This document shows, in pieces, positions 17,493 through 19,740 of a DNA stretch of 64,000 bases (the stretch's first letter is position 1; each line of letters begins with the position of its first letter). Position numbers and translations under genes: made by a program. The notes beneath the pieces were generated by a model. It did not search any database and was not told the DNA's origin. It saw nothing but the letters and a program-made list of their open reading frames with translations. The DNA is taken from the sequence record OP172785; one strand, written 5' to 3'. Source of the stretch: Escherichia phage ECO07P2.

Positions 17493-17966
17493 TTATTTGA
17501 TCTGTTTAGCAGACCAAATGCGGTCTTTAATAATTTTTTGGATGTCTTCAACATACTCAAGAGAGTGAGCATGTGGGTTATCTTTGAAACTATAAGCACG
17601 AGCCAGTTTTTGGCCTTCAGTTTTGATTACTAAAAGCTCTTTAAGGATAGCTTCATATTTGGAGATAATTCCTTTAACAATATTTTTTTCTTGTACAGCT
17701 TTAGGATCTGCTTTAGGAGCAGGTTTACCTGAAGCCTTTGCAAAAGCAGCTCCAGTAGCAACTAAACTTTTCCAAGCCATACTAACTGCATTCCCTGTAA
17801 ATCCTTCGGCTTTCATATCACGAGCAAATTGGAATCGTGATTCATCGGAAGCATCTTTATAGGAATATTTACCCGCGGCAATGGCAGCTTTTGCAACAGC
17901 TTGAATTTCAGTGCTAGATGCTTCATTTAACACAGCTTCATTTAAAAATTGAGCATATGATTTCAT
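17493..17966 (-). CDS. CTS protein (internal-protein-like, 157 aa)
   Basis: N-terminus MKSYAQFLNEAV resembles the CTS; Ala/Lys-rich body; own late promoter and flanking terminators. Confidence 0.6.
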   Translation of the reverse strand: MKSYAQFLNEAVLNEASSTEIQAVAKAAIAAGKYSYKDASDESRFQFARDMKAEGFTGNAVSMAWKSLVATGAAFAKASGKPAPKADPKAVQEKNIVKGIISKYEAILKELLVIKTEGQKLARAYSFKDNPHAHSLEYVEDIQKIIKDRIWSAKQIK

Positions 17967-18002
17967 CTTATTTCCTGTTTTAATTCGTGGTTTTAATATA
18001 CT

Positions 18003-18010
18003 TATTTATA
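18003..18010 (-). promoter_or_regulatory. late promoter (TATAAATA on minus strand)
   Basis: plus-strand tatttata 18003-18010, about 37 nt upstream of ATG at 17966. Confidence 0.55.
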
Positions 18011-18013
18011 CTA

Positions 18014-18040
18014 AAAAGCCCCAACCTTTCGGTCGGGGCT
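18014..18040 (-). terminator. rho-independent terminator with GAAA loop (minus strand)
   Basis: minus RNA AGCCCCGACC-GAAA-GGUUGGGGCU followed by U5; ends transcription coming from tRNA and small-RNA region. Confidence 0.65.
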
Positions 18041-18045
18041 AAGCC

Positions 18046-18351
18046 TTGCGGCAACCTTGTCGGGGTTCCACCTGCTAAGGCAAGTGTTTGTACGAAACGC
18101 CGGGACTTGAACCCGGTTATTAAGTAGTTGACGCTACTCAATATTTTTAAAAGGCCATATCTCGACCATATCCGAACGTTCCGTCAAAAACGCTACTCGG
18201 CTTACGGCAAAGATATTTCCTCGAATCGATAATTCGGTGCGCCGTTTCTGCTGTGATGTAAGGGGATATTAACAAATCGTAAAGATTTATTAAGACCAGT
18301 CCTTACTCAGGGAACATCAGTCCGACGACTTACCGGTAGCGACCCGGTTTC
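18046..18351 (-). ncRNA. ORF-free structured region; candidate stable small RNAs (position of T4 RNA species 1 and 2)
   Basis: 306 bp without ORF between terminator and tRNA cluster; minus strand carries a T-arm-like CCGGGTTCAAGTCCCGG; in T4 two stable RNAs lie distal to tRNA-Arg. Confidence 0.35.
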
Positions 18352-18702
18352 TTAATATTCTTTTAAAGCATCAATCTGTTCACGGCGTTTACGCCATAAA
18401 TCAATTGCCTCATACGCGGATTCAGCATTTCGAATTGGACGGCATTTATATAAAGACTTATGATTTTGATATTGCGTAGATAACGGAATTTTATCTAAAA
18501 GGTCTTTACGTTCAAAGTATTCGTAACCATCTAAACCAAATGAACGATTTTTGAGAAATTGCCAATGACCATATTCGTTTTCGACATAAACATAATCTGC
18601 ATGCTGATAAAGTAAATTAATTACACGTTCAGAAATAACAGTGTCATTGTGATTAAAATAGAATGTTAAATCATGAACTACTAAATAAACATTACCTTTC
18701 AT
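18352..18702 (-). CDS. hypothetical protein (116 aa) embedded in tRNA region
   Basis: ORF in track ending 16 nt before tRNA-Arg. Confidence 0.5.
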   Translation of the reverse strand: MKGNVYLVVHDLTFYFNHNDTVISERVINLLYQHADYVYVENEYGHWQFLKNRSFGLDGYEYFERKDLLDKIPLSTQYQNHKSLYKCRPIRNAESAYEAIDLWRKRREQIDALKEY

Positions 18703-18718: not shown

Positions 18719-18794
18719 TGGTCGAGGCAGTAGGGATCGAACCTACGACCTAGGACTTAGAAGGTCCTTGCTCTTCCTTCTGAGCTATGCCCCG
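18719..18794 (-). tRNA. tRNA-Arg (anticodon UCU), CCA encoded
   Basis: hand-folded cloverleaf on minus strand; anticodon loop CUUCUAA; GGTTCGATCC T-arm. Confidence 0.8.
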
Positions 18795-18798
18795 TAAT

Positions 18799-18874
18799 TG
18801 GGGTGACCGATGGGAGTCGAACCCATGACTACGAGAATCACAATCTCGAGTTCTACCAACTGAACTACGGCCAC
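18799..18874 (-). tRNA. tRNA-His (anticodon GUG) with extra 5-prime G
   Basis: anticodon arm CGAGA-UUGUGAU-UCUCG; G-1 pairs with C73; T-arm GGGTTCGACTCCC. Confidence 0.7.
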
Positions 18875-18988
18875 ATTAATATCTACTCCAACAATCAAGA
18901 TGTCTTCACACGAAATTAAGAGAAGAGTGATCAGTTCAACCCCGATAATCGCGTCAAGTAGATATTAATGTGACAGTTGTCACAAATT

Positions 18989-19063
18989 TGGCGGACGTGA
19001 TAGGATTCGAACCTATAACCAATCGCTTAACAGGCGATCGCTCTGCCATTGAGCTACACATCC
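18989..19063 (-). tRNA. tRNA-Asn (anticodon GUU)
   Basis: anticodon arm ATCGC-CUGUUAA-GCGAT; T-arm ATAGG-TTCGAAT-CCTAT. Confidence 0.7.
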
Positions 19064-19067
19064 AAAT

Positions 19068-19154
19068 TGGTGGGGAGTGATGGAGTCGAACCACCCGAGT
19101 CGCAATGACAATGGATTTACAGTCCACACCGCTACCTCTACGGGATAACTCCCC
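19068..19154 (-). tRNA. tRNA-Tyr (anticodon GUA), long variable arm
   Basis: acceptor GGGGAGT/ACTCCCC; anticodon loop CUGUAAA; class II length 87 nt. Confidence 0.65.
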
Positions 19155-19167
19155 TTAATTCTTAATT

Positions 19168-19242
19168 TGGTGGCCCTGGGTGGAATTGAACCACCATCTG
19201 GCGATTATGAGTCGCTTGCTTGAACCTTCCAGCTACAGGGCC
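19168..19242 (-). tRNA. tRNA with CAU anticodon (T4 tRNA-Ile-like; Met by anticodon alone)
   Basis: anticodon loop CUCAUAA; adjacent to tRNA-Thr as the T4 Thr-Ile pair. Confidence 0.65.
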
Positions 19243-19243
19243 T

Positions 19244-19319
19244 TGGTGCTGATTGACGGAATCGAACCGCCGACCTTCTCATTACAAGTGAGTTGCTCTA
19301 CCTACTGAGCTAAATCAGC
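19244..19319 (-). tRNA. tRNA-Thr (anticodon UGU)
   Basis: acceptor GCTGATT/AATCAGC; anticodon loop CUUGUAA; T-arm GGCGG-TTCGATT-CCGTC. Confidence 0.75.
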
Positions 19320-19324
19320 AAAAC

Positions 19325-19414
19325 TGGCGGAGGCGATAGGATTTGAACCTATGAGTCGCCGGAGCGACTGCCGGTTTTCAAGACCGGTGCATTAAACCAC
19401 TCTGCCACGCCTCC
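19325..19414 (-). tRNA. tRNA-Ser (anticodon UGA), long variable arm
   Basis: anticodon arm CCGGT-CUUGAAA-ACCGG; 90 nt class II. Confidence 0.75.
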
Positions 19415-19416
19415 AG

Positions 19417-19490
19417 TCTCCATACAAGGATTTGAACCTTGGACCTCCTGATCCCAAATCAGGCGCTCTACCAAACTGAGCTACACGGAG
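19417..19490 (-). tRNA. tRNA-Pro (anticodon UGG), CCA not encoded
   Basis: anticodon arm CCTGA-UUUGGGA-TCAGG; only 2 nt from tRNA-Ser 5-prime end (dimeric precursor as in T4). Confidence 0.75.
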
Positions 19491-19500
19491 TAAATTAAAT

Positions 19501-19574
<74 letters not shown>

Positions 19575-19579
19575 AAATT

Positions 19580-19666
19580 TGGTGCGAGAAGTGGGACTCG
19601 AACCCACAAGGAAATCATTCCGCAGCATTTTAAGTGCTGTGCCTTTACCAATTTGACCATTCTCGC
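19580..19666 (-). tRNA. tRNA-Leu (anticodon UAA), long variable arm
   Basis: anticodon arm CAGCA-CUUAAAA-TGCTG; 87 nt. Confidence 0.75.
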
Positions 19667-19667
19667 G

Positions 19668-19740
19668 CTGGGAATAAAGGACTCGAACCTTTGCATCCTG
19701 GAATCAAAATCCAGTGCCTTACCAACTTGGCTAATTCCCA
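19668..19740 (-). tRNA. tRNA-Gln (anticodon UUG), CCA not encoded
   Basis: acceptor TGGGAAT/ATTCCCA; anticodon arm CTGGA-UUUUGAU-TCCAG; 1 nt from tRNA-Leu (Gln-Leu dimeric precursor). Confidence 0.75.

Follow-up and report, generated by a model that had tools for sequence, protein, structure and literature searches.

Orthologs of the T4 stable RNAs rnaD and rnaC, assigned by alignment and covariation, downstream of the tRNA cluster of Escherichia phage ECO07P2

Identity of the interval between the tRNA cluster and its terminator

The question raised by this locus is what a phage encodes in an interval of its tRNA region that lacks an evident gene. We analyzed a 64,000-nt window from Escherichia phage ECO07P2 (OP172785), a T4-like Tequatrovirus, and focused on the interval 18046-18351. 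An earlier note had described the interval as free of ORFs on either strand, which is borne out by its six reading frames. Each frame contains 3-7 stop codons, the longest open run is 51 codons, and the ORF listing of the interval consists of mechanical ORFs of 34-53 aa. The same note had proposed that homologs of the T4 stable RNAs reside here. Using window positions 18000-18400 as a blastn query, we found that query bases 9-353 align with T4 (MT984581) at 94.8% identity and that the features beneath the match read 'rnaC | rnaD', which upholds the proposal. Homologous DNA was present in 802 phage records, nearly all from enterobacterial Tevenvirinae, and 679 of these cover at least 80% of the query; because of this homology, the locus is beyond chance. 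The closest record to the region is phiC600P9 (99.3% identity). The records of RB9 and T4 annotate rnaC and rnaD beneath the match, and that of ATK47 annotates an rnaC ncRNA. A blastn search of 5,426 complete E. coli genomes returned no match to the locus, which argues against a host origin or a host copy. At the gathering threshold no Rfam family matched the interval, and at E values up to 10 Rfam gave chance-level fragments only.

In the T4 record, rnaD (species 2 RNA, 118 nt) is followed by rnaC (species 1 RNA, 139 nt) on the same strand as tRNA-Arg. rnaD begins 2 nt past tRNA-Arg (a 1-nt gap), rnaC lies 6 nt beyond rnaD, and the same terminator follows. The pairwise alignment with T4 remains collinear over rnaD, rnaC, and the terminator. 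On the minus strand of the window, the rnaD ortholog occupies 18236-18355 by T4-equivalent boundaries, with 106 of 120 positions identical to T4 (88.3%), and the rnaC ortholog occupies 18090-18229, with 137 of 140 identical (97.9%; the span equivalent to the T4 annotation is 18091-18229). The two are separated by the 6-nt spacer GAAUUA (18230-18235), which has the same length as in T4. Judged from this alignment, 18090-18355 is the ortholog of the T4 rnaD-rnaC locus. The locus as such is already known, having been annotated in T4 since the 1970s, and in that respect this is an ordinary find. It should be noted that the T4-equivalent 5' end of rnaD (18355) lies 4 nt beyond the interval under study and overlaps the stop codon of the adjacent ORF, whereas the conserved core of rnaD (GAAACCGGG...) starts at 18351. 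Within this shared core, the first 52 and the last 25 nt are identical to T4. At the low-coordinate end of the interval, 18046-18089 (∼45 nt) belongs to the 3' trailer and falls outside both mature RNAs.

The surroundings agree with T4 in the order of the two RNAs, the strand of the tRNA cluster, the trailer, and the terminator. The tRNA cluster consists of 11 tRNA genes, Gln to Arg, at 18719-19740 on the minus strand (ARAGORN and the Rfam tRNA model), as compared to 8 in T4, and tRNA-Arg is located at 18719-18794. The earlier note had placed the interval between the tRNA operon and a strong terminator, at a position equivalent to that in T4. The terminator side of this description stands, as does the position distal to tRNA-Arg. 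The direct adjacency to tRNA-Arg does not, since a 116-aa ORF (18352-18702, minus strand, 351 bp, stop codon TAA at 18352-18354) intervenes where T4 has a gap of 1 nt. This ORF belongs to phrog_3355 (E = 1e-54) and gave no Pfam match. Between the copies themselves, rnaD ends in ...CACCG here and in ...CACCA in T4, its central hairpin has diverged from that of T4, and the T-loop of rnaC reads UUCAAGU here and UUCGAAU in T4.

Folds of rnaC and rnaD and their covariation support

For rnaC we assembled 26-30 distinct homologs from Tequatro-, Mosig-, Gapriver-, Dhaka-, Karam-, Moon-, Kanagawa-, Gelderland-, and Marfaviruses. A covariance model (R1) built from 26 of them recovers the window copy with 157.5 bits (E = 1e-41) as a single copy in the 64-kb window. 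The window copy has a minimum free energy (MFE) of -50.2 kcal/mol (z = -4.61), its MFE fold agrees with the consensus, and every consensus helix can be formed in it. In the MAFFT alignment, 90.6% of the cells at consensus pairs are paired, as compared to 30-49% in slid controls, and 21 of the 38 pairs are changed on both sides in a compensatory manner; none of 500 shuffles reached the observed values. The outcome was the same with a model-based alignment (90.6-90.7% of cells paired).

The fold is closed by an acceptor-like stem, P1, in which the 5' strand CGAUUCG (18222-18228) pairs with the 3' strand CGUUUCG (18093-18099), which is followed by U-A-C (18090-18092). Across the family P1 takes the form CGRUUCG with CGUUYCG, giving five Watson-Crick pairs and two invariant U-U oppositions. 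Pair 3 is A-U in 11-14 sequences and G-C in 15, with perfect covariation, and the other four Watson-Crick pairs are invariant. Adjoining the 3' strand of P1 is the T-arm CCGGG-UUCAAGU-CCCGG (18100-18116), with 5 bp and a 7-nt T-loop that fits UUCRANY; its middle pair alternates between G-C (13 sequences) and U-A (13). This arm is the tRNA-like minus-strand element CCGGGTTCAAGTCCCGG that the earlier note had pointed out, which is indeed present at 18116-18100 as a part of rnaC. Directly 5' of the T-arm, at a distance of 2-3 nt, sits PV, a 9-bp hairpin (18119-18142) with the 6-nt loop CGUCAA (18128-18133); each of its nine pairs is changed on both sides. The remaining domain is a long irregular hairpin of ∼60 nt formed by P2 and P3 (18157-18216), with changes on both sides in four of the five pairs of P2 and five of the six pairs of P3a. 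Its cap is the 8-nt loop UUUGACGG (18181-18188), which is conserved as UUUGACGR across the family. In Gelderland-, Marfa-, and some Kanagawaviruses, the middle of P2/P3 is swapped for a different sequence that still forms a hairpin. No variation is seen in the junction strands AGGA and GGCC, and hardly any in the adjacent AAAAU tract. After P1, most homologs carry the tail U-ACA-A, and Marfavirus phages carry U-CCA-A. Position -1 is U or A in all 26 distinct homologs listed (U 18229 in the window). Upstream of rnaC homologs, the A/U richness of the spacer and the U or A at -1 are conserved, whether the homologs follow rnaD or a tRNA.

The loops of P3 (UUGACG) and PV (CGUCAA) are complementary over 6 nt and are paired in 100% of the cells. 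In the Marfavirus clade both loops switch jointly, from UUGACG/CGUCAA to UUGGCG/CGCCAA. This complementarity suggests that the P3 and PV loops form a kissing interaction, which is unproven because the switch amounts to one compensatory event in one clade. IMG/VR scans added only ∼20 further true homologs and no new kissing-loop variants. Of the 120 loci that came out of a metagenome scan with the gapped pattern TTCGAGGA..TTTGNCG..CGNCAA, every one was a chance match (nhmmer on all 120, the covariance model on 80).

A Kanagawavirus lineage (IME523, L021 610-749; IMG/VR contigs L177, L217, and L228) has the T-loop UGCAUGC, which does not fit UUCRANY. The arm and the rest of rnaC are intact in several independent contigs of this lineage; the T-loop motif is thus not indispensable.

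We also considered an alternative acceptor helix, in which the internal ACGGAAC pairs with the 3' GUUYCGU and which is the basis of the 'tRNA-Met' call in PG7. This cloverleaf helix shows no compensatory change, 13 of 26 sequences cannot form its pair 48-139, its pairing falls under the shuffle mean, and it is incompatible with the well-supported P3. It was rejected. Taken together, the covariation identifies rnaC as an evolutionarily conserved folded RNA, in which the two ends make up a tRNA-type acceptor stem stacked beside a canonical T-arm. In this fold, the D and anticodon arms are replaced by the ∼60-nt irregular hairpin and a 9-bp hairpin with complementary loops.

The rnaD copy in the window has an MFE of -35.9 kcal/mol (z = -2.98). 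A consensus fold from 15 distinct homologs has 95% of cells paired, as compared to 32-47% in slid controls, and includes eight pairs with changes on both sides. The 5' hairpin H1, ACCGG-GUCGCUA-CCGGU (18332-18348; 5 bp, 7-nt loop), is invariant in 15 of 15 homologs, and a plus-strand 'terminator-like' site in the terminator scan is its complement. The closing helix, GUCGUCG with CGGCG-C-AC, is invariant as well and leaves 1-2 free 3' nucleotides. Segments 1-35 and 96-115 are invariant, and the central hairpin varies freely and is wholly replaced in two lineages. A first model of rnaD (AGUC-GUCG-GACU together with GAUGU/ACAUC helices) gave way to the RNAalifold model: in IME281 and TH40 the first model is broken, and the RNAalifold helices, a short one among them, persist via compensatory changes. 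No tRNA-like feature was found in rnaD, and the terminal CCA of T4 rnaD (...CACCA) is not conserved, the other homologs ending in ...CACCG, CACAG, CACCU, or CACCC. On this comparison, rnaD is a rod-like hairpin with a 5' stem-loop, whose ends are invariant and whose middle diverges freely.

Genomic contexts of the two RNAs

The two RNAs do not always occur together. Karam-, Moon-, and Gelderlandviruses have rnaC flanked by tRNA-Trp and tRNA-Gly, from which it is set off by spacers resembling those between tRNA genes, and no rnaD was found in the flanks retrieved. Altogether, rnaC without rnaD occurs in five genera. Conversely, the Dhakaviruses IME281 and MX01 contain rnaD without rnaC, with an exact junction of rnaD to the trailer and terminator. 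Because rnaC alone occurs inside tRNA arrays and rnaD alone occurs with an exact trailer junction, the two are separable, and the distribution indicates that rnaC and rnaD are independent modules that appear to be gained and lost like tRNA genes. A third downstream context of the rnaD module was seen in TH40 (L035) and Yersinia phage P8 (L036), in which a different sequence (...UUUUACGGAG...) comes after rnaD in place of rnaC or the usual trailer.

The conserved 3' trailer (18041-18089, minus strand) contains small hairpins according to the T4 alignment and the fold, and it accompanies the terminator also in phages that lack rnaC, such as IME281 and MX01, where it directly follows rnaD. The intrinsic terminator of the tRNA/stable-RNA unit (18012-18040, minus strand) consists of a 10-bp stem (18040-18017, 7 G-C pairs) with a GAAA loop followed by TTTTT, and it is identical in T4. 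The trailer at 18041-18089 also holds a partial direct copy of the terminator 5' arm (CCCCGAC..AAGGUUG) and a 7-bp hairpin. Further downstream, a 157-aa ORF (17493-17966, minus strand, phrog_2280) is flanked by near-identical terminators at 18040-18017 and 17485-17462; T4 has a single terminator and then directly e.8. The segment 17462-18040 therefore looks like an inserted cassette of an ORF plus a terminator.

On the upstream side, the 116-aa ORF between tRNA-Arg and rnaD is also found in phiC600P9, Shigella phage A2, and the Mosigvirus ATK47. An ORF before rnaD is a common arrangement in relatives. In the window, rnaD still lies upstream of rnaC. Within the tRNA cluster itself, the 114-nt spacer between tRNA-Asn and tRNA-His (18875-18988, minus strand) contains a near-perfect inverted repeat of ∼19 bp (CACAUUAAUAUCUACUU...GGAGUAGAUAUUAAUGUG), the 3' arm of which enters the 5' end of tRNA-His (MFE -35.5 kcal/mol, z = -3.49). 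The closest relative, phiC600P9, lacks tRNA-His. The repeat may have been left behind by the insertion of a tRNA gene, or it may serve in processing.

The annotation of rnaC homologs in these contexts is inconsistent. Depositors and ARAGORN have labelled them 'tRNA-Met', 'tRNA-Lys', and 'tRNA-OTHER' (hits H79 and H205 among the cases). The homolog in PG7 (L003 1504-1598) is annotated as a 95-nt 'tRNA-Met', which ARAGORN calls likewise, and in VAC36 (L029 826-963) and Marfa (L030 816-953) a 45-aa CDS with an RBS is annotated over the homolog. We flag this as a recurring error, in which rnaC homologs are entered as tRNAs or as small CDSs. A description of the comparative structure of rnaC was not found in the literature searched, and rnaC is absent from Rfam.

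Biogenesis, possible function, and comparison with known RNAs

Our best overall explanation, to which we assign a probability of about 0.88, is that the locus encodes the orthologs of T4 rnaD and rnaC, which would be co-transcribed with the tRNA operon and processed to stable RNAs. In T4, species 2 and species 1 RNAs share an RNase P-dependent dimeric precursor, and species 1 RNA is cleaved in vitro by RNase III. The T4 tRNA cluster yields a primary transcript of ∼1.75 kb, from which 8 tRNAs and the species I and II RNAs are derived, and its transcription ends after the species I gene (PMC2330249). Late accumulation of RNAC and RNAD in T4 was confirmed by Northern blot (PMC9697503). By analogy, the tRNA-operon transcript would here carry rnaD and rnaC in its 3' portion. 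RNase P would act on rnaC by virtue of the acceptor/T-arm minihelix, and the cut would make the 5' end of rnaC and free rnaD. 3' exonucleases would then trim rnaD and rnaC to their terminal helices, and the compact folds would confer stability, such that both RNAs accumulate late in infection. Excision from the tRNA-operon transcript by host tRNA-processing enzymes is the most likely route, and we infer that the mature ends correspond to the T4-equivalent positions.

The 5' end of rnaD is where this scheme would have to depart from T4. Since an ORF and not a tRNA precedes rnaD, its 5' end needs a cut unlike that in T4, or possibly a promoter; a late-promoter motif TATAAATA was not found directly upstream of rnaD. 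The 5' end of rnaD would accordingly be cut from an mRNA-like upstream segment and not from a tRNA 3' end, which is unprecedented in T4.

What the RNAs do is among the oldest open questions of T4 biology, and the roles of the T4 species 1 and 2 RNAs are described as unknown (PMC3014915). It is possible, and no firmer than that, that rnaD and rnaC act in trans as a tRNA mimic or a protein-binding RNA and not as an mRNA or a tRNA. Trans action is favored because the constraint is strongest in loops and junctions, because rnaC is kept inside tRNA arrays, and because rnaD acquired a host-adaptive mutation. The last of these refers to a T4-like phage that was evolved on a semi-permissive host and that carried one convergent rnaD SNP in all lines (PMC12685909). 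With low confidence, rnaC may mimic a tRNA and thereby occupy or titrate a host or phage tRNA-binding factor, and rnaD may be a protein- or RNA-binding module that acts via its invariant terminal motifs. A more specific and more doubtful version is that rnaC is a dedicated tRNA decoy, in which the acceptor/T-arm half is tRNA-like and the position of the anticodon arm is locked by the kissing loop. If true, such an RNA would stay out of translation while letting the phage titrate or misdirect a factor that acts on tRNAs. This factor might be an anti-phage nuclease that cleaves tRNAs, the CCA-adding enzyme, RNase P, or one of the phage's own tRNA-repair enzymes. The decoy would have rnaD as a separately mobile partner module that acts through its invariant ends. 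Experiments could start from the fold of rnaC that covariation supports, from the invariant ends of rnaD, and from the independence of the two modules.

The main rival, which we consider rather improbable, is that both RNAs are by-products with a role in cis only: pieces of structured spacer or 3' trailer that aid precursor folding or protection, or slow 3' exonucleases, and that persist through compactness alone without any function in trans. T4 mutants lacking the tRNA region remain viable on laboratory hosts, and the RNAs are non-essential there. In T4-like phages the two RNAs come last in the operon, just ahead of the terminator, the ends of rnaD are apparently set by neighboring processing events, and 50 years have passed without a function being found (PMC3014915), all of which fits a by-product. 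A 3' position is not general, however, as Karam-, Moon-, and Gelderlandviruses carry rnaC within the tRNA array, so that it has no 3'-cap role there, and rnaC and rnaD are retained independently across genera. Moreover, AGGA, GGCC, UUUGACG, and CGUCAA in rnaC, as well as nt 1-35 and 96-115 of rnaD, are invariant although the stems have diverged, so that the constraint exceeds what a passive spacer needs. The convergent rnaD SNP during host adaptation is likewise difficult to reconcile with a by-product (PMC12685909).

The other readings are unlikely. That rnaC is a decayed tRNA gene within the tRNA cluster, with rnaD as unrelated adjacent junk, would account for the acceptor stem and T-arm, for the tRNA calls made by gene finders and depositors on homologs, and for the two U-U mismatches, which look degenerate. 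The U-U pairs are invariant and not drifting, however, the non-tRNA domains are conserved and covary over nine genera, the ARAGORN-style cloverleaf fails the covariation test, and no tRNA is called in the window copy by the Rfam tRNA model or by ARAGORN; we give a pseudogene very little weight. Comparably little goes to a cis-regulatory leader or attenuator of downstream genes. The partial duplicate of the terminator 5' arm in the trailer could in principle form alternative structures, and a 2025 paper on BW1 terms the region a 'regulatory locus' and speculates about a regulatory effect (PMC12685909), but a strong terminator separates the RNAs from the downstream genes, discrete stable species accumulate in T4 (PMC9697503), and inside tRNA arrays rnaC has no downstream ORF to regulate. 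Least probable of all is that the locus encodes one or more small proteins, such as a 42-aa ORF at 18147-18275 (minus strand) or the 45-aa CDS of Marfaviruses. The mechanical ORFs, the 45-aa CDS with RBS in the Marfa and VAC36 records, and a GAGGA motif near the 5' end of rnaC could be read in this way. Against it, no frame is conserved, and the sole SD-like start within T4-type rnaC, the one close to GAGGA, reads UUG-CCG-UAA. Close homologs are separated by 1-nt indels, their substitutions are compensatory at base pairs and not of the third-codon-position kind, and the RNAs of the T4 locus are known as stable non-coding species (PMC3014915, PMC9697503). We therefore retain orthologs of rnaD and rnaC, processed from the tRNA-operon transcript, as the preferred reading.

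How far the likeness of rnaC to a tRNA extends can be stated by comparison with the canonical tRNA (RF00005). Shared are a 7-bp terminal stem that joins the 5' and 3' ends, a T-arm of 5 bp and 7 nt with a UUCRANY loop adjoining the 3' strand of that stem, a short 3' tail that is single-stranded, and placement within tRNA arrays. In contrast to a tRNA, rnaC has neither a D-arm nor an anticodon arm, is 139 nt long, contains two U-U mismatches in the stem, and ends in UACA instead of NCCA, except in Marfavirus, where U-CCA is encoded. ARAGORN and the Rfam tRNA model made no tRNA call in 18046-18351. A strictly tRNA-like end of rnaC is a candidate only, because the T4 annotation starts 1 base before the stem and the tail is UACA.

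Other RNAs that borrow a part of a tRNA offer a second comparison. ARAGORN found no tmRNA. The YrlA model matched real tRNAs (E = 1.7) and the mascRNA model matched 17 nt of the T-arm (E = 9.6), both below threshold. RNase P substrates of the tRNA-mimic kind have been listed (PMC11143913). With the tRNA-like domain of tmRNA, bacterial Y-RNA-like YrlA, mascRNA, and the P1/P7 precursor of C4 antisense RNA, itself an RNase P substrate, rnaC has no similarity at the level of sequence or covariance model, and its putative kissing-hairpin architecture differs from theirs. What rnaC would share with all of them is the principle that a mimic of the acceptor stem and T-arm brings in RNase P and 3'-end enzymes, which set the ends of a stable non-coding RNA.
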